Shown here: positions 3,316 through 48,312 of the stretch, one piece after another
How the letters are laid out: every line of letters starts with the position of its first letter
Numbering within the stretch: the stretch's first letter is position 1
Source: a virus
Length of the DNA: 64,000 nt
UHGV virus genome: UHGV-0200554
Reading direction: 5' to 3' (one strand)
The notes under the pieces: generated by a model
What the model was told of the DNA's origin: nothing
Database searches by the model: none
The model's input: only the letters and a program-made list of their open reading frames with translations
Position numbers and translations under genes: made by a program

Positions 3316-4211
3316 TGTTTGAGCATCATATTACACCATTTGACCCTATGAGTCAAGCCCCAACAGATGTAGGAACAATACTTTCTTCTTTGTATGAGAG
3401 TATCCTGTACCGTCGCAGACTATTTACAGCTTGCCATCCATTCTACAACTTCATAGCAAACGCGATCAATACCACACTCAACAGTGCAGGCTTTGACGAT
3501 TTCCACTGGGTCTTCACTAAAGAAGACAAACCGGACAAGGTTTTTGTAGGCAGCTTCAGCATGGAGATCAATAAGGCTGTGTCATGGCAGCGTGCAGGTT
3601 GTGTCATGTTCCGTTTCCAACAAGGTTTTGCCTCTATAGCGGAGCATCCTTCTTTTATGAACGGCATTGAAGGTGGAGAGAAAGGTTTCTTCAAAATGCT
3701 TGCAAAAGTATTTGACATGCAGCCTTTTATGATATATGTTTATTATAGCCTGAATGGCAGGAGCGTATGCTACTCTTCAGATATCTCTATTGATCTGCTT
3801 GACTTGCCATACGTTTTCTGCTACGATGGAAAAATAACTAGCAGGATGACTGGTAATCAGAATGTAGCAGACTTCGCCCCGTTGCAGATTAAGTCACGGG
3901 AATACACAGCTTTGGGTGGAGAACCTGTTATGTTGATCAACAAGTATCACACAACAGGGGAATTTCTGATGTTCCAGTACCGGAAGCGGGATAGCCGGAT
4001 GGAGTATGCCCGTGTCAGCTCAGACACTCTGGAGTCATTTCAGGGTGAGGATGGTAGCTATACAGCTGAATCTCTTGAAGTTATGGAAGCGATGGGAATA
4101 AAAGATCAATTATGGGTTGACAACCTGTTGGGTAATGAGTTAGAATTACTACGTCCTATGTTGAAGTGGGACGAAGAAACTAAAGCTAAATACGAAGGAG
4201 ACTTCCAATGA
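3316..4211 (+). CDS. hypothetical protein
   Basis: ORF track 3261..4211; start moved to ATG at 3316 with GAGAGGAA RBS. Confidence 0.55.
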
Positions 4212-12297: not shown

Positions 12298-12588
12298 ATG
12301 GCTAACAAATTACACAGTTTCTATCTAGATTTCACACACGAAGAGTATGTATGTGAATGCCTATGCCGAGTCCAATTGCCAGATTACAATGAACGGGCAT
12401 CGGACATTGATTACTACGGCTTCCGCGAAATCGCAGAGATTGAAGTCTACAAAGATGGTAACAAATTACCGTTCTTACCTAAAGGTTTACGTAATAAAAT
12501 CAACTTTGCAGCACACAAAGCTCTGGAAGAACACTTGCACTCTGCTGATGTGCTCTCTTCGTTTGCTGAAGAAACAGGTGGCTTTTGA
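12298..12588 (+). CDS. hypothetical protein
   Basis: ORF track trimmed to ATG 12298 with AGGAGA RBS. Confidence 0.5.
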   Translation: MANKLHSFYLDFTHEEYVCECLCRVQLPDYNERASDIDYYGFREIAEIEVYKDGNKLPFLPKGLRNKINFAAHKALEEHLHSADVLSSFAEETGGF

Positions 12589-12782
12589 TGGATGTTAAAA
12601 TTCTGAGCTTCAACTTAAGTGTCAGTTATGAGTGTGCTGAACAACAGTTGGCTAGTTACCTAAGACTTGGCTACAAGATCAAAGGTCAATCTCATAACGA
12701 CAAATACCTTATTTATACTTTAGTTGAAGATTCTCCAACACTCGAAGATAAAGAACGAAAACAATGTATGGGAGGCTTCTGA
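12585..12782 (+). CDS. hypothetical protein
   Basis: ORF track; overlap coupling. Confidence 0.45.
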   Translation: MMDVKILSFNLSVSYECAEQQLASYLRLGYKIKGQSHNDKYLIYTLVEDSPTLEDKERKQCMGGF

Positions 12783-13063
12783 TGGCTGCTGATGTAAAAA
12801 TTATCGGGGTCCCGTGTATCGATAGTTGCCTTAATTCTCTGGAAGAGGATTTAAGCAAATATGTTGACGAAGGTTATGCTATCACAGGCCAATGCATAAC
12901 ACCTCAGGGCAATATCATCTATACACTGGTTAAAAACGTAGACGAAGCTAAGGTTGTTCCTACGCCAACACCAGTGCTTGAAGAGATCGATATTGATTTT
13001 GTTCTGGAAACACTGGAAGCAGACTGGATCAAAAACAAAAGTAGGAGGGTAGCTAAAAAATGA
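12782..13063 (+). CDS. hypothetical protein
   Basis: ORF track 12764..13063; probable start ATG 12782; sequence similar in pattern to previous ORF (possible paralog). Confidence 0.45.
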   Translation: MAADVKIIGVPCIDSCLNSLEEDLSKYVDEGYAITGQCITPQGNIIYTLVKNVDEAKVVPTPTPVLEEIDIDFVLETLEADWIKNKSRRVAKK

Positions 13064-13533
13064 TTTACGAAAGTGACTATATCTGGAAGATTGGCCCTGC
13101 TGCACAAGATCTGATTGAAGTGCCACGGGAAACGCTACAAAAAGCTGCTTTTAAGTTCCGTGATCTTGCAGTGATTGGTAACAGGATCCTGAAATATCTT
13201 AAAAACAAACGTTATGTTGAAGAGAAGTTCTTCGGATTGATCAAAAAAGAAACTACAGTATGGGAACACTACTTGAAAGAGTCTCAGAGCTTCTATGCTG
13301 GGCTGGGCGTAGCTCAGATGGTGATGCATGACGGTTACATCAACCCAACTGAAATGCGTTGCCTACGCTACGCTATAAGCGATTACCCTGGGTTCCTGAA
13401 GTATCATTTAACTGGCACAGCCTCTGAAAAGATTTATCTGACAGAGGAACATTTCGAACAACTGAATAAAATTTTAAACATAGACTTGACATTAGTCTCA
13501 ACAGAGTATACAATTGGGATTCGTGTCGAGTAA
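13060..13533 (+). CDS. hypothetical protein
   Basis: ORF track; followed by terminator. Confidence 0.55.
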   Translation: MIYESDYIWKIGPAAQDLIEVPRETLQKAAFKFRDLAVIGNRILKYLKNKRYVEEKFFGLIKKETTVWEHYLKESQSFYAGLGVAQMVMHDGYINPTEMRCLRYAISDYPGFLKYHLTGTASEKIYLTEEHFEQLNKILNIDLTLVSTEYTIGIRVE

Positions 13534-13538
13534 TAACA

Positions 13539-13565
13539 GCCCTGCCCGAAAGGGCGGGGTTTTTG
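13539..13565 (+). terminator. rho-independent terminator
   Basis: Hairpin CCTGCCCGAAAGGGCGGGG followed by TTTTT. Confidence 0.6.
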
Positions 13566-13585
13566 TGTTTGGAGGGCTAAATAGT

Positions 13586-14320
13586 ATGAAGCAAGGTGTA
13601 GTGTGGGCTTTATTCAATGGCTCCGATATTGCTGTCAAACCCTGGGCTGATGCAGGGTATTTGTGCTTCTGCTTCAATGCAGAAGGGGCAGATCACGGGA
13701 GCTATGCAGAGGTAGTAGAAGAACATCCCAACATTAAGTACATAGATTACTGGATTGACCCGTGGTTCCCACAAGAAACCTTGGGGATGTATCCTGCACC
13801 AGATTTCATCCTGTCGTTTCCACCATGTACCCACTTAGCGGTATCTGGAGCAGCACATTTCAAGAAAAAATTACAAAAAGATCCGTTGATTCAGGTCAAT
13901 GCTGTAAAAGATGCACGTATTGCAGAAACATTGGGTAACATGTATAATTGTCCGTGGCATGTGGAGAACCCTGTTGGGGTTATGTCTAATATGTGGCGTA
14001 AACCAGACTACAAGTTCCATCCGTCTGAGTATGGTGGCTATCTGCCGGAAGATGACCAGAACCCGTGGTTCCCTGACCTGATTAAGCCCAGAGATGCTTA
14101 TCCGAAGCTAACCTGTGGATGGTTTGGGAATGGTTTTGTTGTCCCTGAGAAACGACCTGTGCCGCAGATTTGTGATGTAAATGGGTATTCTTTCCAACAT
14201 ACCAAACTGGGAGGAAAATCTCCTCGTACCAAAATGATCAGAAGCCTGACACCTCGTGGTTGGGCATTAGCCGTGTTTGAAGCCAACGAACCCGTTGTAA
14301 GGAGCAAACTCAATGGTTGA
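13586..14320 (+). CDS. C5-cytosine methyltransferase-like protein (short, atypical)
   Basis: Motif I-like LFNGSD, motif IV-like SFPPCT (PC-T instead of PCQ), motif VI HVENPVG (ENV); start ATG 13586 with GGAGGG RBS. Confidence 0.45.
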   Translation: MKQGVVWALFNGSDIAVKPWADAGYLCFCFNAEGADHGSYAEVVEEHPNIKYIDYWIDPWFPQETLGMYPAPDFILSFPPCTHLAVSGAAHFKKKLQKDPLIQVNAVKDARIAETLGNMYNCPWHVENPVGVMSNMWRKPDYKFHPSEYGGYLPEDDQNPWFPDLIKPRDAYPKLTCGWFGNGFVVPEKRPVPQICDVNGYSFQHTKLGGKSPRTKMIRSLTPRGWALAVFEANEPVVRSKLNG

Positions 14321-14984
14321 CTGGAGCAAATATTTCACCTACAGTGACGGTAAACTGTTCTGGGCGTATACCGCAAAAGCCGGAAGAGGCAGGGTTATAC
14401 ATCACGCAGGCGAGGAGGCCACAGGTACAGACACAGATGGCTATAGGGTGATAAGTGTGTCAGGTGTTGGACGTGTTAGTAGGCATAGAATAATTTGGGA
14501 GATGCATTACGGGGAGATACCTGAAGGCCTTGTTGTGCGGCACAAGAACGACATAGCAGGCGATGATAGGATAGAGAACTTAGTCCTAGGAACACAGGGA
14601 GATAATGTACGAGACATGATCTACAGTGACAAATTGAACATTAACAATACCTCAGGGTGTCGAGGTGTATGCTACCATAGGGGTGTAAAAAGATGGATTG
14701 CATCTGCTGGAGACATATATTTAGGATGTTTTAAGACAAAAGAGGATGCAATTACATGCAGAAAGTTATGGGAGGAGGGAAAATTCGTCCCGCAAGAATT
14801 AGATGTTAGAAATACCAGCGGTGTAACAGGGGTGTTCTATGTGCCAAGCTCTGGAAGGTGGAGAGTTAGAGTACAAAGTGGCAAAAAGAGAAAGAGCTAT
14901 GGTAGTTACAACACTTTAGAAGAAGCAAGAGCTGTAAGGGACAGAGTGATGAAAGAGATTGAGGAGTCTAAAGATGGGGAATAA
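14313..14984 (+). CDS. HNH homing endonuclease with two AP2-type DNA-binding domains
   Basis: HNH_3-like N-terminus (GYRVISV...RHRIIWE...HKN...DNRIENL-like), two AP2-like repeats (GVCYHRGVKRWIA..., GVFYVPSSGRWRVRV...). Confidence 0.7.
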   Translation: MVDWSKYFTYSDGKLFWAYTAKAGRGRVIHHAGEEATGTDTDGYRVISVSGVGRVSRHRIIWEMHYGEIPEGLVVRHKNDIAGDDRIENLVLGTQGDNVRDMIYSDKLNINNTSGCRGVCYHRGVKRWIASAGDIYLGCFKTKEDAITCRKLWEEGKFVPQELDVRNTSGVTGVFYVPSSGRWRVRVQSGKKRKSYGSYNTLEEARAVRDRVMKEIEESKDGE

Positions 14985-17900
14985 GTTTATACCCTCTGCG
15001 TATAGTCGTTATGGGGAACCGAACCCAGTTGCAACAAGATACAAAAGCGGAGGCAGTATGGCACGAGACTATCGTGATGAAAAAGAGGTTGAAACTGTAG
15101 AGACTGTTTTAGAAAATACTAAAATTGTCCCTGTTCCACAACAAAATATCGGACTGACGGCTGCACAATATTTCGGTGTGCGATCAGCATTGTCCCAAGA
15201 AGATGGTGTGACAGTCGTTGCAACATATTTCCCATATTACAACCGCTACGGCAATCTATCTGGCTTTAAAAAGCGTGATTGGTCTAAGCCAAAAGAGCAG
15301 AAAGGGCACTGGTCTGTAGTAGGCATTGTTAAGGCCAACAGCCAGTTCTTCGGTCAGAAAATGGTTGGTGAAGGCTCAGACCATCGTAAAATCATTGTCT
15401 GCGAAGGTGAAGGCGATGTTATTGCTGCGTGGCAGACTGAATGGATGATGGTCAGGAAAATAGCTACAGACCCGTCATCAAATAAGAAAGCTAAAGCGTG
15501 GGCACAAAGCGTTCTTGACGGTATTAAAGCCGTGCAGGATGGTGGTTCTGCTAAAGGTTTTCCCACAATTAACGTGGTAGGGCTTAATTGTGGTTGTGCG
15601 AATGCCGTAGACGCTTTTGCCAACAACGAGAAGTTTATTCGTGGCTTTGATGAGATTGTCCTGGCCTTCGATAATGACGCTGCAAATGATGTTGAGAAGC
15701 TAAAACATGTCACCAAAGGTGTTGAAGCCACTCACAATGTTGCAGCTTTCCTGATGGCTGACAACGTTTTCCATGTGCAGTATCCGAGCGAGGTAAATGA
15801 TCCAGAGGGTTACAAAGATATCCGTGATTTGTTCCAGGCTAAAAAGTATGATCAAATTCACGATATGTTCAAAAACCCGATCAAATACGTGCCAGACGCT
15901 GTAGCAGGCCTGAATGATTTCTCAATTGAAGATTTACGTAAAAAATCCACCAATGGTGTTGACATTGGGGCAGAGTTCCCTAAACTCCAGAAAATGTTGA
16001 AAGGTTTGCATAAAGGCACACTGGTCATGTTGACTGGCCCTTCCGGCGGTGGTAAGACTACGGTAGCTAAGAAGATTGAGCACCAGATAGCTAAATACCT
16101 GATGGATCCTACGGTGGCTAAAGCTGATGACTACGACCCCGAAGACAGGTTGTGTATGATTCACCTGGAAGAGGACCCAGAAGAAGCCATCAACTCGCTG
16201 TATGCTAACCAGCTGGGGTATGATATCAAGAATTTCATGGAGGACCCAAGCAAGTATCTGACCGAGCAGGAACACTTTGAAATCCACAAAGCCTGGGTTG
16301 ATGCTGATAAAATCAGAGTATTCCGGCACTTCGGTTCAATACCTGTAAACGACCTGATCACCAAGCTGAAACAGATGGTGTGCTTGTATCATTGTCGTTA
16401 CATCGTACTGGATCATCTGTCAATGGTTATTTCTGGTTTGAATGTAAAAGATGAGCGTAAAGAGCTGGACCTTGCAATGACGCAGCTTGCAGCATTCTGT
16501 AAGCAATTCAATGTGTTCATTTTGGTGATTGCACACTTACGTCGTACAGAGATTATCCCACCGAAGGATAAAGAAGGTAGGGCTTTACCGTTCTGGTATC
16601 CTGTCCGTAAAGAAAACCTTCGTGGTTGTGTTTCTGCGGACACAGAGTTTTTAACCCCGCAGGGGTGGAAACGCATAGATAACTATGCAGAAGGGGATTT
16701 GGTTGCGCAGCACGATGAAAATGGCGTAATGACTTTCGTAACCCCGAAAGCCTACATCAATCTTCCTTGCGAAGAAATGTGGCATGTTTCCAACACTCAC
16801 GTTGTAGACATGTTGTTGAGCGATGAACATCGTGTTGTATATGTGAATGACAGAACGCCAGATGTTTTCCGTACGAAAACCATGTTGGAAGTTGTCTATG
16901 ACCACAACAACAAGCCTTCAGGTATGCGTGGGAAAATACCTGCTACGTTCCTCACAGGGTGCAATGGGACGCTGGGGTTGACTGATGACCAATTACGCCT
17001 ACAGGTTGCTGTAAATGCTGATGGGACAGTTCTTACTGAGTCAACAGGAAGAGTGGCTGTGAGAATCAAAAAAGATCGGAAAAAACAACGTCTCGAGATG
17101 CTGCTGGAGAAAACAAACACCACTTATAGGCGTCTTGATTTGCACGGGGTGCACGAAGGACGCACAGAGTACCAATTTAAAGCACCGTGTGGGTATAAAG
17201 GTGTGACTGGGGAATGGTTTAATCTCAAACAACACGAGTTGGAGATTATCTGTGATGAGGTTATGTATTGGGACGGAGATTCTGTGAACAAAAACAGGGT
17301 GTCCACCATTAACAAACTTGAAGCGGACTTCTTACAGTTTGCCTACAGCGCCTGTGGACATAGAACATCTTTATCCATGAAGGAGAACAACAGTGGCTTT
17401 GGCGGTAGTTACAACTGTAAACCTTTGTACGAGGTAAATGTTTGCAATACTAAGTACATGCATATACGCAAAGGTAGTAATAACAAACCCTCTATTGAAC
17501 GTGTACCTTCCCCAGATGGACGTAAGTATTGCTTTACGTTACCGTCGGGTATGTGGGTGGCGCGCCGCAATGGGCATATTTTTATCACAGGAAATTCGGG
17601 GAGTATGGAACAACTCAGTTGGGTTGTCATAGGGGTAGAAGCAGAAGAGATGCCTGACAGGTCCCGTGGGCGTGTCCGTTTAGTTAGCCTAAAAAACAGG
17701 CCAGCTAAAACCTTGGGTATCGCTGATGTGCTGATTATGAACCCTGAGACTGGTAAATTCTCCGATGCCAGTGACTGGGTGTGGGATAAAGAGACAGGTT
17801 TCTTCCTGAACAAAGATGGGGATATTGTCTGGAGGCCACAAGATATGTTCGACAATGAAGAACATGTTGTTGTGGAAACTCCTGAAGGTAAGGTTACCGC

Positions 17901-18015
17901 CGATGTGAAACCTCAACCAAAATCTGTTGACGCAGAAGGGGAAGAAGATGATGGAGTGGATGATCAGAGTGTAATCCAACAGGAGTTCCCTGAGGATGAA
18001 GATTGTCCGTTCTGA
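14974..18015 (+). CDS. bifunctional DNA primase-helicase (T7 gp4-like), intein-containing
   Basis: TOPRIM motifs (IIVCEGEGD, VLAFDNDAAND), Walker A GPSGGGKTT, helicase motif split by intein; acidic C-terminus ending DEDCPF; ATG 14974 with GAGGAG RBS. Confidence 0.8.
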   Translation: MGNKFIPSAYSRYGEPNPVATRYKSGGSMARDYRDEKEVETVETVLENTKIVPVPQQNIGLTAAQYFGVRSALSQEDGVTVVATYFPYYNRYGNLSGFKKRDWSKPKEQKGHWSVVGIVKANSQFFGQKMVGEGSDHRKIIVCEGEGDVIAAWQTEWMMVRKIATDPSSNKKAKAWAQSVLDGIKAVQDGGSAKGFPTINVVGLNCGCANAVDAFANNEKFIRGFDEIVLAFDNDAANDVEKLKHVTKGVEATHNVAAFLMADNVFHVQYPSEVNDPEGYKDIRDLFQAKKYDQIHDMFKNPIKYVPDAVAGLNDFSIEDLRKKSTNGVDIGAEFPKLQKMLKGLHKGTLVMLTGPSGGGKTTVAKKIEHQIAKYLMDPTVAKADDYDPEDRLCMIHLEEDPEEAINSLYANQLGYDIKNFMEDPSKYLTEQEHFEIHKAWVDADKIRVFRHFGSIPVNDLITKLKQMVCLYHCRYIVLDHLSMVISGLNVKDERKELDLAMTQLAAFCKQFNVFILVIAHLRRTEIIPPKDKEGRALPFWYPVRKENLRGCVSADTEFLTPQGWKRIDNYAEGDLVAQHDENGVMTFVTPKAYINLPCEEMWHVSNTHVVDMLLSDEHRVVYVNDRTPDVFRTKTMLEVVYDHNNKPSGMRGKIPATFLTGCNGTLGLTDDQLRLQVAVNADGTVLTESTGRVAVRIKKDRKKQRLEMLLEKTNTTYRRLDLHGVHEGRTEYQFKAPCGYKGVTGEWFNLKQHELEIICDEVMYWDGDSVNKNRVSTINKLEADFLQFAYSACGHRTSLSMKENNSGFGGSYNCKPLYEVNVCNTKYMHIRKGSNNKPSIERVPSPDGRKYCFTLPSGMWVARRNGHIFITGNSGSMEQLSWVVIGVEAEEMPDRSRGRVRLVSLKNRPAKTLGIADVLIMNPETGKFSDASDWVWDKETGFFLNKDGDIVWRPQDMFDNEEHVVVETPEGKVTADVKPQPKSVDAEGEEDDGVDDQSVIQQEFPEDEDCPF
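16627..17595 (+). other. intein (about 323 aa) inserted in helicase motif of primase-helicase
   Basis: Starts with Cys after ENLRG, ends ...ITGN followed by Ser; removal restores LRG-SGSMEQLS matching the T7 gp4 DLRGSGALRQLS motif; possible degenerate LAGLIDADG-like segments inside. Confidence 0.7.
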
Positions 18016-18079: not shown

Positions 18080-20866
18080 ATGGCGCTTTTTTGTTATGAC
18101 TTTGAGGCCTCAGGCTTGCTCGATGAGCCTGAACTGTACTACCATTGTGGACTGTTTAAACAGCACCACAAAAACAATTTCATGCTATTCCTGCCGCTAA
18201 ACGACAGGACCCATTACACAGAGGAAGATGTAGAAACAGCAAAACAATTTGCTCTCAATAAGCAGACAATTTACAAAAACTGTCAGGTGCGGGTTGCCGA
18301 CTTCGGGTATCTGGAAGAGTGGTTGACAGGACATTCTGATTGGTCACCAACAGCTCTTGCCTGCCACAACTGCTTTGATTATGACCAGATTTTGATGGAA
18401 AAACTGTCAGGCATTCATTTCGACCTGTTCGAAGATAAAGATTGCATGGGAACCATCAACGGTCACAGGGTTAACCTGTTCGATACTCTGCCGATGAGTC
18501 GTATACTGTGGCCTGATCGCCCGTTACCGAAGGGTTGCCCAGAATCAGTATTCAACCCGGTAACGAAGAAAAGTCAAGCTGTAGGTCCACACGGGTTGAT
18601 GGCCTGGGGCTATGCACTTGGCAACCAGAAAGTTAAGATTGATGACTGGCGCAATCTTCCACTCTGGAAATACGTAGACCGTGTGTGGGAAGACGTTATC
18701 ATCCAGGAATTGCTCTGGGACGAACTGATCGCCGAGTCCAAAGGGACATTCTACGGTAAATCTGACATGCAAAACTTTATGTATGATCCAGACAAAGAGA
18801 AACCTGGTGGATTCAAACAGATCACTTGGAAGTATGCTCTGCGTCGTGGGATGCTTCAGCACTTCCTGATGGGCTTACAGGCAAGACAAGGTGTTTATTT
18901 TGATATTGATGGGGCGATAGCTTTACGTCAGAAGTGTGACGACATGATGAAAGAGATCGCTGATCGTGTGGAACCGCAGCTGCCACTGAAAGAAATTTCA
19001 GAGGCCCAGAAGCCTAAGTTCCCACAGAAACCGTTTAATACGGATGGTAGTATCTCTTCTCACGGCTACAGCTGGTTGAAGAACAAACTGGGGTATCCAG
19101 TTAATGAAGCAGCTTTCGACTTCAAACCTGCACCTAAACGGGCTTTCAACAAAGATGGTAGTGTTAGTGCCACAGGTGCTAAATGGTGTGTAGAAAGAGG
19201 TTGCACCGATCCTGAAAAACAGGCAGACTTCCTGAGGGCAGCACGGTCAGAGGAAGCACCTAAACCTCTGCCGGATGACCTGATGCAACAGGCAATTAAG
19301 GATTTGCAGGATAAGAAAATGCCTGATTGCATGGTGCCTATGAGAATGAATAACCAGATGGATATCAAGCGTTATCTAATCTCTGTAGGCTGGCAACCAA
19401 CAATGTGGAGAACGAAAGATTTAACCCGTGATTACCACAAAAAACAGTTGCCGGATGCTGAAGTTGATGCTAAAGTAAGGGAGTATATGGATGAACTGGA
19501 AACATCTGAGTATCGTGCCCTGATCATCCGTGAACTGAACAAGGATGCACGATTCAAAATTTCAGAAGCGAAGTTTCTGAGTCGTAAGAACTCCCCGAGG
19601 GTTGAGCAGGAGGTGTTCGCTAAGTTCCGGCGTAAAGCCAGAGGACTACCAACATCCCCGCAGCTGAAAGATAGCTTCGGGCATTTGTGTCCTAACCTGG
19701 CAAGACTGCAAGGAGAGATGGCAAAAGATATTGTGTTCTGGCTGTCATTGCGTAACCGTAGGTCAGTACTTGACCCAATCAAGGAAGATAAAGTTGATAC
19801 CGGATTGTTGAATCATCCGAGATTGCAGATCGATCACCGCTTACCCGCAGAAAGCTCTGGTTTGACTGCTACCGGACGACAGAAGCATAAAATATGTGCC
19901 AACCAGCCTAAACCTTCACCAAAAGTTGTATTGGGTAAGGAGATGCGTAGCCTCTGGAAACCTGCTCCTGGTAAGTATCAGTTGGGGGTGGATGGTTCCA
20001 ACCTTGAACAGCTGATAGGTGCATGGGGTGCTTACGATTTCGACAACGGGGCGTATTACAGGATTATAAGCGAAGGGGACGCACATGCTTTGAACGCCAA
20101 AGCCTACTCTAAAGTTGTGGGCAGGGAAGTTTCCCGTGGTGATGGTAAACCAATCACCTATGGTGTGATGTATGGCGCTCAAAAGGATAAAGTAGCGGAT
20201 ATGCTCGACGTTGTGCCGGAGGTTGGTCAGCAGGTAATTGATGCATTCTGGGATACCAACTTCGGCCTGAAAGGTCGTAAAGAGGCACTTGAGAAATTCT
20301 GGGAGGCAACAGGTAAGAAATTTATCTATGCTTTCGATGGTCATGCCATCTGGACACGCTCTAAACACTCCTTGCTGAATGCATATCAGCAGAATGGTGG
20401 CGCTTCATTGTGTGACTTGGTAGGCTTACTGGTTCATCGCAACCTAGTGACCTTGAAAATAGATAATAAAACTTGGTATGACCTAGGTGTCAGAAGAATA
20501 ATTTATTACCATGACGAATTTCAGTATGAAATTCCAGATAATGGCTTATTTAAAACAGTTTATGAGTTTGATACTCTGGAAGAACTGGAAAAATTCAAAG
20601 CAGAGGAGGAAGCAAAAGGTCGTATCTTTACTGGCAACAAATACAAAAAAGCCCGTAAAGATGAAAATGGTGAAGAAGTAGTTGACAGCAACGGTAAAAC
20701 CGTGTATGATCCAATCATAAACGAAAACGGCAAATGCCAGTTGATTCATTGCAAGGTTGGTGAAATGGTTGTTAAATGCTTCCACCAGGCATCTCGCATC
20801 ATGAAAGTACCTTTCCAGATCACAGGTGAAGGTCTTGTGGGATACTCGTGGGGCGAATGCCACTGA
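18080..20866 (+). CDS. DNA polymerase, family A, with 3'-5' exonuclease domain
   Basis: Exo I YDFEASG at N-terminus; motif B-like KPITYGVMYGAQ; motif C YHDEFQYE; 928 aa. Confidence 0.85.
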   Translation: MALFCYDFEASGLLDEPELYYHCGLFKQHHKNNFMLFLPLNDRTHYTEEDVETAKQFALNKQTIYKNCQVRVADFGYLEEWLTGHSDWSPTALACHNCFDYDQILMEKLSGIHFDLFEDKDCMGTINGHRVNLFDTLPMSRILWPDRPLPKGCPESVFNPVTKKSQAVGPHGLMAWGYALGNQKVKIDDWRNLPLWKYVDRVWEDVIIQELLWDELIAESKGTFYGKSDMQNFMYDPDKEKPGGFKQITWKYALRRGMLQHFLMGLQARQGVYFDIDGAIALRQKCDDMMKEIADRVEPQLPLKEISEAQKPKFPQKPFNTDGSISSHGYSWLKNKLGYPVNEAAFDFKPAPKRAFNKDGSVSATGAKWCVERGCTDPEKQADFLRAARSEEAPKPLPDDLMQQAIKDLQDKKMPDCMVPMRMNNQMDIKRYLISVGWQPTMWRTKDLTRDYHKKQLPDAEVDAKVREYMDELETSEYRALIIRELNKDARFKISEAKFLSRKNSPRVEQEVFAKFRRKARGLPTSPQLKDSFGHLCPNLARLQGEMAKDIVFWLSLRNRRSVLDPIKEDKVDTGLLNHPRLQIDHRLPAESSGLTATGRQKHKICANQPKPSPKVVLGKEMRSLWKPAPGKYQLGVDGSNLEQLIGAWGAYDFDNGAYYRIISEGDAHALNAKAYSKVVGREVSRGDGKPITYGVMYGAQKDKVADMLDVVPEVGQQVIDAFWDTNFGLKGRKEALEKFWEATGKKFIYAFDGHAIWTRSKHSLLNAYQQNGGASLCDLVGLLVHRNLVTLKIDNKTWYDLGVRRIIYYHDEFQYEIPDNGLFKTVYEFDTLEELEKFKAEEEAKGRIFTGNKYKKARKDENGEEVVDSNGKTVYDPIINENGKCQLIHCKVGEMVVKCFHQASRIMKVPFQITGEGLVGYSWGECH

Positions 20867-43943: not shown

Positions 43944-43966
43944 GGCCGCAAATAAGCGGCCTTTTT
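43944..43966 (+). terminator. rho-independent terminator (GGCCGCAAATAAGCGGCC + T5), duplicate of 40426
   Basis: Identical 18-nt hairpin followed by TTTTT; last element of the small-gene array. Confidence 0.75.
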
Positions 43967-44630
43967 GTTGTCTGTAGTATAGTGAATCCGGTATTCAAAA
44001 CAGCGGATCATTCCGCGAACGCTATGCGTGATGTGTGCATAAAATAAAATGCCTATAAATTAACCACACCACAAAAAAGCTGTATGTGCATACATAGTTT
44101 TTAAGTTTTTTCAGTTTTCAGCTGTCAAATGTGGGGCATTTTGTGAAGTATCTCACACTTTTCGGCTGATGCACATTTTATATAGCTATGTCAACAACTA
44201 TAAATCTTTATAAAACAGTAAGTTACAAAGTCCATTTTTTGAAAAATCGGGTATAACTATAGGCGCGAAATTCTATTTTTCACGTAGCGTCACGATAAGA
44301 TGTATCTGATAGGTATGTTTTAATTATGCAATATTAATGCATAACCAACATGTGATAAATATTCTCAACAACCCGGCAGATGTATTAAATATGGTGACTA
44401 TTCCACCCCACATTATTTCAGACGGCAACTATTCCGATGTGTGATTAATATACTTTCAGGCGGTGATTATTCTGTATCTCAATAATCTATATAATATAAT
44501 ATTAGTAATATAATTAGATTATGAGATACAAGAAAACATCTAAAATAGTAAAATTACAATTAATGAAAATATATAAATTGCATAAAATAAAATAAGACAA
44601 ATAACAATTTGCGAATGCAATGATCACAAT

Positions 44631-45051
44631 ATGCAACGATAACATGGCGCGACCGGAGGGAGCGACATAATAACGCTGAGTGACAATAACACCCCCGTGT
44701 TATTATCCAGCATTATTATCTCGCTAATTTATGATTATCTCATAAATTAACATGTAATAATCCTCAGCGTTATTATGTCCTCCAATAACAATAAAAATTG
44801 TTATGGTAACGCTGAGTTATTACTATGTTAATAAAAGGGCATAAAGCCCGGTACTATGTACCATTAAATAATCTAAAACGATTACGTTTTCTCAGCGTTA
44901 TTGTGTCAAATGTTATGATAACAGTATATAATTATCTTGCTAACTTTCAGTATACATATTCCGCGTAGCGTCATGTGGAGCGTGTAGTAAACCTGTAGCA
45001 AGATAAGAATAACGCTGAGGTATTGTACCGTATGCAACGATAACATGGCGC
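44631..45051. repeat. 20-bp direct repeat ATGCAACGATAACATGGCGC (2 copies: 44631-44650, 45032-45051)
   Basis: Exact copies about 400 bp apart in AT-rich non-coding DNA. Confidence 0.7.
44669..45019. repeat. 12-bp motif AATAACGCTGAG, 5 copies in both orientations
   Basis: Copies at 44669, 44763 (inverted), 44807, 44891 (inverted), 45008. Confidence 0.7.
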
Positions 45052-45572
45052 AACTATAACAGGCCTAAAGAGTAAGATAAACAATAGTTTATGTGTATAA
45101 TCGGCGGGGCCTCCTGGCTGCGCTGTGTGAAACTATCATGTATGGAAACAGTCCAGGATGTTATGATTTCAGCATGGGATTGTGTGTTTTTGAATTGTGT
45201 ACGGGTAAACTGTGTGGGGTAAGTATAGGGGAAGTATAGGGGAAGTATAGGGGAAGTATAGGGGAAGTATGCCTAACAAATTTCGTTCTTTTTGTCAACA
45301 ATTTTTCTATGAAAGTGGTCCGACCAGTTATAAGATGCATCTACGGAGCATGTTATGTAGCTGGTATGGTAGTGTGCCAGTGCAATATGATGCCCGGTCA
45401 TAGCTTGTGTGGTGTACCTGTTACACCAGTAAATAGAATTAATAGCAGGCTAACTACTACAATGATTAATCTTTTAGTGCTGTAATAAACCGCAATTATT
45501 CTCCTTTCGATTGTTTTCGTTTCCTTTCGTTTCTTATCGTTTGAGCTGTGTTTTATTCCGCGTAGCGTCATG
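44959..45572. repeat. 17-bp direct repeat TTCCGCGTAGCGTCATG (2 copies: 44959-44975, 45556-45572)
   Basis: Exact copies; degenerate relatives near 44003 and 44281. Confidence 0.65.
45216..45270. repeat. tandem repeat, 11-bp unit GGGGAAGTATA, about 5 copies
   Basis: GGGGTAAGTATAGGGGAAGTATAGGGGAAGTATAGGGGAAGTATAGGGGAAGTAT. Confidence 0.85.
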
Positions 45573-45578
45573 CTGAGC

Positions 45579-45618
45579 TGTGGATAAGTCTGTGGATAAC
45601 CCTGCCTCCTGTGGATAA
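45579..45618. promoter_or_regulatory. cluster of three DnaA boxes (TGTGGATAA = complement of TTATCCACA)
   Basis: Perfect 9-mers at 45579-45587, 45591-45599, 45610-45618, same orientation. Confidence 0.65.
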
Positions 45619-46481
45619 CTGGCCTGCTATGCCTGCTGTGTGGTACTATTGAACTACTGTACAAATGATCATAAGTGCGTATAATCGGTGTTACGTATGA
45701 TGAACAATACGAAGTAATAATTATTCCCACATGAGAAGGCTTATCATTTACTTAAATGTTGCTGTGGAAAACTGTAACGCATGTTATTATTCAACCCCAC
45801 ACAATGAGGGCGTGAACAGTCCCCCCCTATAATCACTGTGTGCAACTATTAATCACTGTGAGTAACTACCATGCAATAACTAGGCCAATGGTCGCAAGGC
45901 CCCGGCTATCAATTGCGTAAACAGCCTCGATATTTGAGAATCATTCGCATTATGAGAAGGAGTCGCGTTTCGCCTGCCTAATACCTCAGATGTGAGTCTG
46001 GGTGTATCGGCCCCGCACTACCCCTGCTTCAGGACAGGACCTGCGGTCCGGTGACAACAACTTGTTGTGCACCATTGAGGATATTTGCCCCGGTTTGTAT
46101 GAATACCTCTTCAGGCTGTGTACCTCCCCGTAGGGGGGGTATGGTGAGAGGTAGTACGAATAAAAAAAAAATGAAGCCCTCTTCAGGCCTGTGATATTTG
46201 TGTGGCTGATATTTGTGGGGAATCCAGTATTTACGGGACTCCTGGACAGGGCGGGGAGGTATACACAAAGGAGGTATTATGTTAAAGATATGTTAAAATA
46301 TGTGGTGCTCTTTAGGCATTATTCTTCAATGAAATCAAGTGCTTAGGCTATGTGTGGGTATTTTCTGTGAATAATTGGCATGTTAATCGGATCAAAGAGG
46401 ATTAAAGAAGGGAAATGATTTGACTCTTCATGCCACTTGTGGTATATTTTCGATACTGGTAAAGGGGGTTCGGAGGTCAGG

Positions 46482-46856
46482 ATGTTTGAGTTCAAAGCTG
46501 ATGCTCAGGAGTTCTACAACAAAGTTGCTAAGCCTGTTGTGGAGTCTGTTCAGGAACACCCTGCAAGCAGACCTACTTCTGTGGGGATAAAAGGTGTTAG
46601 CAAGTACTACAGAGGTAAACATGTGTATTACAGGGCTTACATCTGGGTAACACGCCACACTGTGAACAAGCAGTTGATCAAAACGTTTAAAACTCTGGAA
46701 GAAGCTGTAGCTCAAAGGCAGGAATGGGAACAGGTGAAGGATATTTTGGACGGGAAAGTAGCGATGGTATTACCTTTTGAATGGGATATGGTGTATGCTT
46801 CTAAATACTGGGAAGTTTATCATGGAATGGCTCAGGAGCAGGATGAAGATTATTAA
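46482..46856 (+). CDS. AP2-domain DNA-binding protein (standalone)
   Basis: ORF track 46437..46856 trimmed to ATG 46482; GVSKYYRGKHVYYRAYIWV...TLEEAVAQRQEW resembles the AP2 repeats of the HNH-AP2 endonuclease at 14313. Confidence 0.45.
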   Translation: MFEFKADAQEFYNKVAKPVVESVQEHPASRPTSVGIKGVSKYYRGKHVYYRAYIWVTRHTVNKQLIKTFKTLEEAVAQRQEWEQVKDILDGKVAMVLPFEWDMVYASKYWEVYHGMAQEQDEDY

Positions 46857-47371
46857 TGGACCGTGAAGGTCCGGCATGTAATGCCAGTTTATGGAATGTA
46901 ATTTGTAGGCATGGAAGCTATTATTTTGCTTAGCTCTGTAATGATTAGCAGGCTGTGTGCTACAACCTTGTTGTACCTGAATCCTTAGGTTTCTAATGAT
47001 TAGTTTGCTAAGTATTTATATGTGCCTAACCCCCTACCCCCGGTTCTAGTCTCCCCAACAACGCTGGTACTTAAACTCTACCGTTATTGTGCCTTACTGC
47101 CCATATTACATCGCAGTTGGCTGGTCACTATAACCGCTCCCGCTCTCCAACCTCGACAAGCTCGTGCGATACTCCATTCATTCGGATGTTCACGCTGTTC
47201 ACTCAGTCGATATTCCCCTATCTCCTTCAATCCGAAGAGAGAGAAACCCAGAATCGTATTCTGGAAAAGAGAGAGAAGATCTAAATTATAGCAGGAGATG
47301 AGAGGAATTGCAATATGGAGGATACCTACCAGAATTGGTAGGCATATGTGGACAGCACTTATTGACAAAAA

Positions 47372-47599
47372 CTACTCCGTATCGATATCTACCTCTGTGC
47401 CTTCCTCAGGTACAGATAACATAGCCATCTGTAGAGCTTCCTCCCAGTTAGTGCGCTCAGCCTGAGCCACCAACTCATCCGGGTCTTTACCCAATGCTTC
47501 AGCTAACCGAGATACATAGAGTACACCAGGGAGAAGTTCAGGATCAAATTCAAGATAGAGAATCCCATCCCCATCTTCTGTGAAAAGCTCAAGTCGCAT
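47372..47599 (-). CDS. small acidic protein
   Basis: ORF track; first gene of minus-strand array. Confidence 0.5.
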   Translation of the reverse strand: MRLELFTEDGDGILYLEFDPELLPGVLYVSRLAEALGKDPDELVAQAERTNWEEALQMAMLSVPEEGTEVDIDTE

Positions 47600-47854
47600 A
47601 CTGGCTCCTTATGTTGACTTCATACAGGTTGTACGATGCCTAAAGAGTGAAATTACTTTGTCTCTTCAGGCAACAGAGCTTGCGATTGTTGTGGATGTGT
47701 GGGCAGAGAAGCTACATAGTAGTGAATAGCTCCACGACATACTACAACAGTATGCATATCATTGTGACCGCTCCAGCTACACACAATATAGCACTTATGA
47801 TTGCTAATGAGAACAGGCAGTAGCTGATAGCTGTGTCTGTAATATCACTTACCC

Positions 47855-48070
47855 TCATACGCTTCTCCTTGTTGCTCTTGCTACTTCAAAATAGTCTACA
47901 TATCTTGATTCTTGCAGGATACGATAGCCTTCCCTATCTGCGTCTTCGATTGTGTGGAAGCGATCTCCAAGCTCCATACGCTCACCAGATTGTAAAACAA
48001 TTATCAGCTTGTACATAGACCCTCCTTCATAATGCAAACTGATAATAGCACAGACAGGAGAAGGAGTCAA
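47855..48070 (-). CDS. hypothetical protein
   Basis: ORF track. Confidence 0.45.
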   Translation of the reverse strand: MTPSPVCAIISLHYEGGSMYKLIIVLQSGERMELGDRFHTIEDADREGYRILQESRYVDYFEVARATRRSV

Positions 48071-48312
48071 GCATAAACCGTGAAGAAAATAGATTATTTT
48101 CTGAGCAGTGAAGGTAAGGCTGGAAAAATTTTGGACAGCTCGCCGCTGGCGAGGAAATGTACAGACCCCCCCTAAAACGTAATAAGAGGGCCTGTAATGG
48201 GTTTTTAGGTTAGGGTAGGGTGTTTGCTCAAGTTCTTGCGAAAAATGCGTCAGAATTGCATCTAGGCCCCTTAAATTTGAAATCTGAGGTCTGTTTTTAG
48301 TCTTAGGGTCCT

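Follow-up and report, generated by a model that had tools for sequence, protein, structure and literature searches.

The window, by which we mean the 64,000 nucleotides (nt) analysed from the virus genome UHGV-0200554, carries at position 14313 a gene for a protein with an HNH_3 nuclease core and AP2 modules. Very probably, this free-standing homing endonuclease gene (HEG) homed into the junction between a methylase gene and a primase-helicase gene, with co-conversion of flanking DNA on one side only. It lies in a patch of ~1.0 kb, consisting of the HEG and ~350 nt of the primase-helicase gene, which, to judge by its identity to the genomes compared, was clearly imported from a Vequintavirus-type donor of another genus. 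We read this patch as a one-sided co-conversion tract that created a chimeric form of the essential primase-helicase. The two features are:

14313..14984, plus strand: free-standing HNH-AP2 homing endonuclease gene, 223 amino acids (aa) (Pfam, phrog_99, AlphaFold2, Foldseek, presence/absence polymorphism)
14317..15330, no strand assigned: imported patch of Vequintavirus type, HEG plus the first ~118 primase-helicase codons (sliding identity, fixed differences)

The window belongs to a Vequintavirinae-like myophage. Nt identity of the DNA polymerase gene to that of Vequintavirus (rV5-like E. coli phages) is only ~70%, and the nearest kin of the window are metagenomic, namely the IMG/VR contigs L008, L009, L018 and L011 (118-141 kb; ~87-93% identity over long stretches). 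One window protein is identical to a protein on a 139.6-kb contig named 'MAG TPA Caudoviricetes sp.' The four contigs served as close relatives in the comparisons, with L005-L007 as relatives at a second locus described below; presence and absence of the HEG were scored on the ~116 Vequintavirus-type records that match the region, among them EmilHeitz (L001), RudolfGeigy (L002) and Escherichia phage V18 (L004).

A Vequintavirus-type patch around the endonuclease gene

We compared the window in 75-nt bins with its own relatives and with Vequintavirus. Up to 14316, most bins of the methylase gene were 91-100% identical to the relatives and ~64-80% identical to Vequintavirus. The HEG itself showed 88-95% nt identity to EmilHeitz. 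From 14969 to ~15330 the pattern was reversed, with 57-76% identity to three of the window's own relatives (L011 reaches 81% in the last bin) and 87-95% to EmilHeitz, the other Vequintavirus genomes, both with and without the HEG, falling mostly in that range. From 15344 onward the window was again close to its relatives (88-97%) and far from Vequintavirus (~50-75%). In summary, the patch has 88-96% identity to Vequintavirus, and the four close relatives have ~90-97% nt identity to the window in general. The same switch is seen in the protein, where aa 1-118 of the primase-helicase are 96% identical to EmilHeitz and 68% to L008, whereas for aa 123-550 the figures are 98% (L008) and 75% (EmilHeitz). 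Fixed differences, that is, sites that separate all four relatives from all five Vequintavirus sequences, were distributed accordingly:

13469-14316, upstream of the patch: 142 sites of relative type, 9 of Vequintavirus type
14989-15297, within the patch: 2 sites of relative type, 60 of Vequintavirus type
15340-16046, downstream of the patch: ~155 sites of relative type, ~6 of Vequintavirus type

The upstream breakpoint falls inside the hexamer CAATGG (14311-14316) and coincides to the base with the start of the HEG. Downstream, the breakpoint can be placed between 15297 and 15340, at the shared sequence AAGGCCAAC (~15330). We considered whether strong conservation could account for a Vequintavirus-like 5' end of the primase-helicase gene, and discarded this explanation because the window's own relatives are only 57-76% identical there and 92-97% identical to either side of it. 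A reverse transfer was likewise rejected: HEG-less Vequintavirus genomes also have the imported flank type, so the transfer ran from the Vequintavirus type into the window lineage. The HEG and its flank are alike in being ~8-10% diverged from known Vequintavirus sequences; they therefore came in together, not very recently, and the donor is unsampled.

Presence and absence of the gene among related phages

Among the Vequintavirus-type records the HEG is present in only five (EmilHeitz, HeinrichReichert, Phage 203, Phage 206 and the ECO121 2-1-1 fragment) and missing from more than 100. The five copies share 91-92% aa identity with the window protein and sit at a constant junction; the other Vequintavirus genomes hold only paralogues of at most 38% identity, elsewhere in the genome. 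In the HEG-less phages RudolfGeigy, JEP1, nimi, S127 BCL3 and 241Ecol014PP the methylase and primase-helicase genes overlap directly. The HEG is likewise missing from all four of the window's close relatives, and their junction reads ...GTAAGGAGCAAACTCAATGG followed directly by GTAATTTC..., the first part ending in CAATGG. The exact HEG protein occurs on four contigs that belong to the window's phage type, and a search of IMG/VR for a close copy found none.

Escherichia phage V18 (L004, ~3500..3900) is a case of its own. It lacks the HEG and has a primase flank of the HEG-plus type, and its junction, GTAAGGAG followed by AGGGGAATAAG, has no ATG. The V18 annotations of both the methylase and the primase-helicase are truncated, and either a scar left by deletion of the HEG or sequencing errors may be responsible.

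An earlier note on this DNA had proposed a mobile free-standing homing endonuclease and had suggested comparing the junction in related phages. That comparison bears the proposal out: four of four relatives and more than 100 Vequintavirus records lack the gene, and five Vequintavirus records have it. The patchy presence, the co-converted flank between genera and the matches to both domain profiles described below support the view that ORF 14313..14984 (ORF, open reading frame) behaves as a mobile free-standing HEG.

Domain structure and predicted fold of the endonuclease

The ORF begins with ATG and encodes 223 aa, in which three domains were recognized:

14481..14612, plus strand: HNH_3 (beta-beta-alpha-Me) nuclease core, aa 57-100 (homologue alignment, I-HmuI alignment)
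14649..14780, plus strand: AP2-like module 1, aa ~113-156 (model topology, alignment to short homologues)
14817..14978, plus strand: AP2 module 2, aa 169-222 (Pfam AP2, beta-beta-beta-alpha in the model)

Pfam HNH_3 (PF13392) matches aa 57-100 with E 1.9e-17 and 63 bits (cut-off 24.8), and Pfam AP2 (PF00847) matches aa 169-218 with E 1.5e-8 and 35.3 bits, slightly over its gathering cut-off of 33.3; both profiles that the earlier note had named for a search thus match. The PHROG match of the whole protein is phrog_99, 'HNH endonuclease' (9.5e-52). Module 1 has no separate Pfam match. It aligns with the single PF00847-bearing region of homologues of ~160 aa, and the motif NTSGxxGV..RW is common to both repeats. 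In an alignment of 60 homologues H77 and N89 of the nuclease core do not vary and N98 is conserved in at least 90%, and all three residues are present in the window protein. The core also aligns to the I-HmuI sequence VVDHK...NL...QKIN, and a sequence search of the PDB gave I-HmuI as the sole match, at a marginal E of 0.43.

An AlphaFold2 model built on the 60-homologue alignment (predicted local distance difference test, pLDDT, 88) shows a beta-beta-alpha core (strands 73-77 and 90-94, helix 95-104) followed by two beta-beta-beta-alpha modules, the first with strands 119-122, 127-132 and 135-140 and helix 143-154, the second with strands 174-177, 182-189 and 192-199 and helix 202-222. The top Foldseek match of this model in the PDB is I-HmuI (1U3E; E 7e-4, probability 1.00, 167 aligned columns) and the second is WRINKLED1, a plant factor with two AP2 domains, in its DNA-bound form (7WQ5; E 2e-3). 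Lower matches include single AP2 domains, such as the TEM1 AP2 domain 7ET4 (root-mean-square deviation 1.1 A), and an integrase arm-binding domain. Pfam, alignments, AlphaFold2 and Foldseek thus agree on an HNH_3 N-terminus with two AP2-like repeats, the architecture first noticed from the letters of the DNA.

Proposed route of homing and its alternatives

The events leading to the patch may have been the following. Two phages would have co-infected one, probably enterobacterial, cell, and the AP2 modules would have bound either at the HEG-less junction or in the first tens of bases of the primase-helicase gene. The enzyme would then have nicked or cut the HEG-less DNA at the bound site, and repair off the HEG-carrying genome would have copied the HEG together with the downstream tract. 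Resolution would have taken place at microhomologies, CAATGG upstream and AAGGCCAAC downstream, because the genomes are only ~70% identical. Since the tract is strictly one-sided, the initiating lesion would be expected at or just downstream of the junction.

The likely target was narrowed down by comparison within Vequintavirus, where the differences strictly tied to presence of the HEG are those in the first ~25 nt of the primase-helicase gene, which starts with ATGGGGAATAAGTTTATAYCC in HEG-plus genomes and with ATGGGMAGTAAATTYATGGCA in HEG-less genomes. HEG-less JEP1 and 241Ecol014PP are mosaics that switch to the HEG-plus type of flank at ~25 nt and ~57 nt, respectively. The predicted target would therefore span the methylase stop and the primase start, and the primase-helicase gene is the probable target gene of the HEG. 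The upstream half of the predicted target region, GTAAGGAGCA.A.T.AATGGG, is common to HEG-less genomes of both genera.

Several observations weigh against the homing interpretation. The recipient is ~60% identical to the donor over the tract, and recognition of its site by the enzyme is an assumption. The patch is only ~90-92% identical to any sequenced donor, so that the event was not recent and the true donor is unsampled. In the nuclease core, Arg76 stands where at least 90% of the 60 homologues have Asp, and an enzyme with R76 could be weakened, or could be a nickase like I-HmuI. Our remark on R76 rests on the general statement that in some beta-beta-alpha-Me nucleases the residue preceding the catalytic His binds the metal, and that its conservation over the superfamily as a whole is poor (PMC2699513). 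All Vequintavirus copies (cluster P0034) have R76 in common with the window.

The substitution of Asp by R76, the microhomologies at both breakpoints and the HEG-free mosaic flanks of JEP1 and 241Ecol014PP could also point to ordinary recombination during co-infection, which would have swapped a ~1-kb segment with the HEG as a passenger and with no nuclease-initiated break. We nevertheless regard this as very unlikely. The patch starts on the first base of the HEG and contains the HEG and the adjoining gene end and nothing else, and a second genus has presence and absence of the HEG at the same site. This is what homing should produce, and nucleases are established markers of exchange boundaries (PMC10448857). 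Also unlikely, if slightly less so, is that the HEG is fixed in the window lineage in an inactive or domesticated form, for instance to regulate expression of the primase-helicase. Such a fate would fit R76 in place of a near-invariant Asp, an ORF that is intact after ~8-10% divergence from the Vequintavirus copies and the translational coupling to an essential gene, but H77, N89 and N98 are intact, and the Vequintavirus copies all have R76 and yet show the patchy distribution typical of active spread. Homing with one-sided co-conversion therefore has our preference.

Junction and neighboring genes

The HEG is flanked on the plus strand by two genes:

13586..14320, plus strand: Dcm-like C5 cytosine methyltransferase gene, upstream neighbor (phrog_757 DNA methyltransferase, 5e-82)
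14974..18015, plus strand: chimeric DNA primase-helicase gene, 1013 aa including an intein, downstream neighbor (phrog_239 5.9e-142, DnaB_C, AAA_25, gene call)

The start of the methylase gene agrees with an independent gene call, and its orthologues in EmilHeitz and RudolfGeigy are annotated as Dcm-like. Towards its end, as far as 14316, nt identity to the close relatives is 96-100%. The ATG of the HEG lies within ...CTCAATGGTTGA and produces an 8-nt overlap with the methylase gene, the sequence around the HEG start being ...AAACTCAATGGTTGA; the methylase ends in KLNG and the stop, and has an unchanged length, with or without the HEG. At the other end, the HEG stop (14982-14984) reaches 11 nt into the primase-helicase gene, whose ATG at 14974 is preceded by a GAGGAG ribosome-binding site in the last HEG codons. 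An independent gene call on the window agrees with both overlaps, and with the 11 nt it backs the overlap with the primase-helicase start that had been claimed before. In effect, the HEG starts with the very ribosome-binding site and ATG that begin the primase-helicase gene in HEG-less genomes, and neither neighbor is damaged because the HEG brings a new GAGGAG site and ATG for the primase-helicase at its own 3' end.

A few further features of the neighborhood were observed in passing. Within the methylase gene, 14069..14218 is 73-81% identical to three of the relatives and 84-89% to L011, in surroundings above 91%. This stretch is only ~67% identical to Vequintavirus and appears to be a separate small mosaic segment that is not Vequintavirus-like. 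Upstream, the ORF at 12585..12782 (65 aa) corresponds to an insertion at 12594..12771 that none of the four close relatives has, and is apparently a paralogue of the adjoining ORF 12764..13063. Downstream, the DNA polymerase gene of the window (18080..20866) is uninterrupted; that of EmilHeitz (6473 onward) and RudolfGeigy (5636 onward) is annotated as two joined pieces (intron or similar).

An intein in the primase-helicase

The primase-helicase gene also contains a second, separate selfish element, an intein:

16627..17595, plus strand: intein of 323 aa (Cys1...Asn, then Ser+1) in the primase-helicase (insertion relative to the relatives)

With slashes marking the splice points, the window reads KENLRG/C...GN/SGSMEQ, and the relatives have an uninterrupted KENLRG/SGSMEQ (KENLRGSGSMEQ in L008). 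The intein is missing at this site from all four close relatives and from Vequintavirus. L011 (5072..6055) carries a homologous intein (41% aa identity, E 5e-72) in the Walker A loop, at GPSG/SGKT. Both sites are of the type G/SG, which suggests ectopic movement of one intein lineage within the primase-helicase. A search with Hint-domain profiles of Pfam gave only Hint_2 at E 0.13, while PHROG matched aa 552-884 of the primase-helicase to other intein-bearing proteins.

A nuclease-less AP2 protein at a second locus

The earlier note had pointed to a second AP2-like protein, without the HNH part, at 46482..46856. The relevant features are:

46420..46448, plus strand: putative sigma-70-like promoter (TTGACT, 17 nt, TATATT, with TG) (consensus scan, DNA alignment)
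46482..46856, plus strand: AP2-only protein, 124 aa, nuclease-less derivative of a second HNH-AP2 gene (homology to L006, hhalign, dN/dS)

The ORF has a GGAGG ribosome-binding site upstream, and both this site and the promoter are kept in a DNA alignment with L006 and L007. At the identical locus these two relatives encode a protein of 236 aa, which shares with the AP2-only protein the N-terminus MFEFKADAQ and the C-terminal 90 residues and has a canonical HNH_3 domain, IDHIDRDPSNNHLYNLRLVSRIQN, in its middle (Pfam E 2e-17 and 1e-18). Residues 9-124 of the AP2-only protein are 56% identical to the C-terminal half of the 236-aa L006 protein (BLASTP E 1e-45), and the C-terminal half of the L006-type protein in turn aligns to the HNH domain and AP2 module 1 of the 223-aa HEG product. 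We conclude from these alignments that the 124-aa protein is a nuclease-less form of a second HNH-AP2 gene from which ~110 aa of nuclease domain have been lost, the AP2 module and a strongly conserved C-terminal tail being kept.

The AP2-like nature of the short protein is seen with hhalign, which aligned aa 36-84 of the short family to AP2 module 1 of the HNH-AP2 alignment (95.9% probability, E 5.9e-9), and in weak PHROG matches of the AP2 portion (phrog_99, 6.6e-5). Less favorable are the absence of a Pfam AP2 (PF00847) match on the 124-aa protein up to E 10, the low confidence (mean pLDDT 53) of an AlphaFold2 model that does have the expected topology (strands 33-44, 47-58 and 61-69, helix 72-89), and the lack of any Foldseek match below E 0.1 with this model. 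The second protein without HNH is thus AP2-like by profile-profile comparison and not by Pfam.

With the AP2-only protein as query, tblastn on 50,697 phage records gave no match. In metagenomes its relatives form 33 protein clusters of 62-100% identity, about one third of them on 110-140 kb contigs of the same phage type and most others on contigs of at most a few kb; precomputed Pfam domains are absent from all 33. In place of the nuclease domain, a linker joins the N-terminal 30 aa to the AP2 module; it is hypervariable in sequence and length, and some alleles carry tandem 11-aa repeats in it (e.g. AVGNSALPHGR three times in L027 1170..1652). Together with the missing nuclease domain, this could mean that the protein is a decaying, functionless remnant of a dead HEG. 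Such decay is very unlikely, however. Among the HNH-less alleles the ratio of nonsynonymous to synonymous substitution rates (dN/dS) over the AP2 module and C-terminal tail is 0.045-0.135 at dS up to ~0.5, from which it follows that the AP2-only gene is retained under purifying selection and is not in plain decay. Moreover, the promoter and ribosome-binding site are conserved, and all clusters read through except P0031, which has a divergent, apparently frameshifted C-terminus, and P0032, an 84-aa fragment. Most likely, the AP2-only protein persists as a sequence-specific DNA-binding protein.

What such a protein would do is a matter for tentative proposals. It might shield the genome from the full-length HNH-AP2 enzyme of co-infecting relatives, by sitting on a target site common to both proteins, or repress a gene of the host or of a competitor in the manner of CasPR and CapR. 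It has its AP2 module and C-terminal tail in common with the full-length enzyme that L006 and L007 encode at this locus, and DNA-binding domains of HEGs have a precedent as repressors (PMC10448857; bioRxiv 10.64898/2026.02.23.707548). On the other hand, short and long forms diverge in their AP2 modules (dN 0.20-0.24, ~40% of residues), and we consider this role doubtful.

Vequintavirus lacks the AP2-only gene, and the conserved non-coding blocks on either side of its position are separated by 390 bp in AlexBoehm and by 871 bp in the window. These blocks (46171..46281 and 47153..47296) are ~75-76% identical to Vequintavirus, above the DNA polymerase gene (~70%); they are unannotated in Vequintavirus and match no Rfam family. 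An intron or structured-RNA setting for the second gene was dropped from consideration, as an Rfam scan of 44000-48200 gave sub-threshold matches only and there are no tRNAs in the window.

The DnaA-box and repeat region

The AP2-only gene is the last plus-strand ORF before a minus-strand block, at the edge of a gap (~43950..46430) of ~2.5 kb without convincing genes that separates converging gene blocks. Two features were mapped in the gap:

45212..45270, no strand assigned: 11-bp tandem repeat, unit GTATAGGGGAA, first copy degenerate, ~5 copies (repeat scan)
45579..45618, minus strand: cluster of three perfect DnaA boxes (TTATCCACA) (box count versus shuffles, spacing in L005-L007)

Five perfect DnaA boxes occur in the window versus 0.82 expected, a count reached in 0 of 100 shuffles, and the box spacing is kept in the three relatives L005-L007. 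The tandem repeat is present as well, and the DnaA-box/repeat region that had been claimed near the AP2-like protein is therefore real in the sense that its boxes exceed chance and are conserved in spacing. A consensus scan of the gap for promoters and terminators gave a site total no higher than in shuffles. The Vequintavirus phage AlexBoehm has a comparable gene-free gap, with no perfect DnaA boxes in the 6.6-kb stretch examined. Two metagenome contigs end at the tandem repeat. Elsewhere in the gap there are several other short direct and inverted repeats, and several metagenome contigs of related phages end within it. The gap could be a replication origin, the genome termini or a repeat that breaks assemblies.

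The boxes lie ~860 bp upstream of the AP2-only ORF, and distance, 0.9-1.3 kb, is the only link of the protein to the boxes and repeats. The suggestion that it acts as a DNA-binding regulator thus holds in part, in that purifying selection fits retained DNA binding. A regulatory or origin-related role is possible. A broader idea, to which we give about as little weight as to the shield or repressor, is that the AP2-only protein is a domesticated DNA-binding module of an HEG, which would serve either in anti-homing immunity or as a regulator at the DnaA-box/iteron region, perhaps an origin.

Discussion

Taken by itself, the HEG is ordinary, since its class has been described and its BASEL orthologues are already annotated as putative homing endonucleases. 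A family of HEGs combining HNH and AP2 is known from phages, cyanobacteria and ciliates, according to the citation of Magnani et al. (2004) in PMC10448857; the phage members were named 'IPA-HNH', and cluster near replisome genes and at genetic-exchange boundaries (PMC10448857). The window HEG resembles them in its N-terminal HNH_3 and C-terminal AP2 domains, in standing free beside a replisome gene, in its patchy distribution and in its position at a boundary of genetic exchange. It differs in having two AP2 modules, whereas most of the ~160-aa homologues that we found have one, and in its Arg instead of Asp before the catalytic His; its clade is known from sequence alone. The best structural match is to I-HmuI/I-BasI of Bacillus phages, which likewise have a monomeric HNH core followed by modular DNA-binding elements, and of which I-HmuI is a nicking enzyme (PMC3017599). 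I-HmuI, however, is encoded in a group I intron and has other C-terminal DNA-binding modules, and its match in sequence is marginal, as noted above. Closest of all are bas49_0075 (EmilHeitz), bas58_0074 (HeinrichReichert) and 203_0205 (Phage 203), with 91-92% aa identity and the same insertion point and overlaps; they differ in that their genomes are otherwise only ~70% identical to the window, into which the flank was imported together with the gene. HEGs and inteins abound in the Vequintavirinae, one example being a helicase intein in phage CB7 (PMC7344957), and the BASEL authors discussed HEG-associated gene conversion in large phages (PMC8594841).

For the second locus, the closest parallels are CapR (PLE), in which the DNA-binding domain of an HEG is reused as a repressor (PMC10448857), and the CasPR anti-CRISPR repressors, which join CapR and AP2 domains (bioRxiv 10.64898/2026.02.23.707548). 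Like these, the 124-aa protein would be the DNA-binding module of an HEG kept without its nuclease. Unlike them, it has no CapR zinc module and sits at a locus where relatives keep the full-length enzyme.

The value of the window lies in the natural experiment that it offers, because HEG-less sisters, HEG-carrying genomes of the donor type and a recipient are all available. The evidence of transfer between genera is unusually clean, with breakpoints placed to the base, a one-sided tract of ~350 nt and a chimeric essential gene, between phages that are ~70% identical. It lends direct support to the view that nuclease genes both mark and drive the boundaries at which phage genera exchange DNA, and it implies that both phage groups share a host. 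The full-length and nuclease-less alleles of the second HEG at one locus provide a tractable case of the repurposing of a DNA-binding domain. If the AP2-only protein is indeed domesticated, it would show, within one clade, the step from nuclease to DNA-binding protein that is thought to lie behind AP2 transcription factors.

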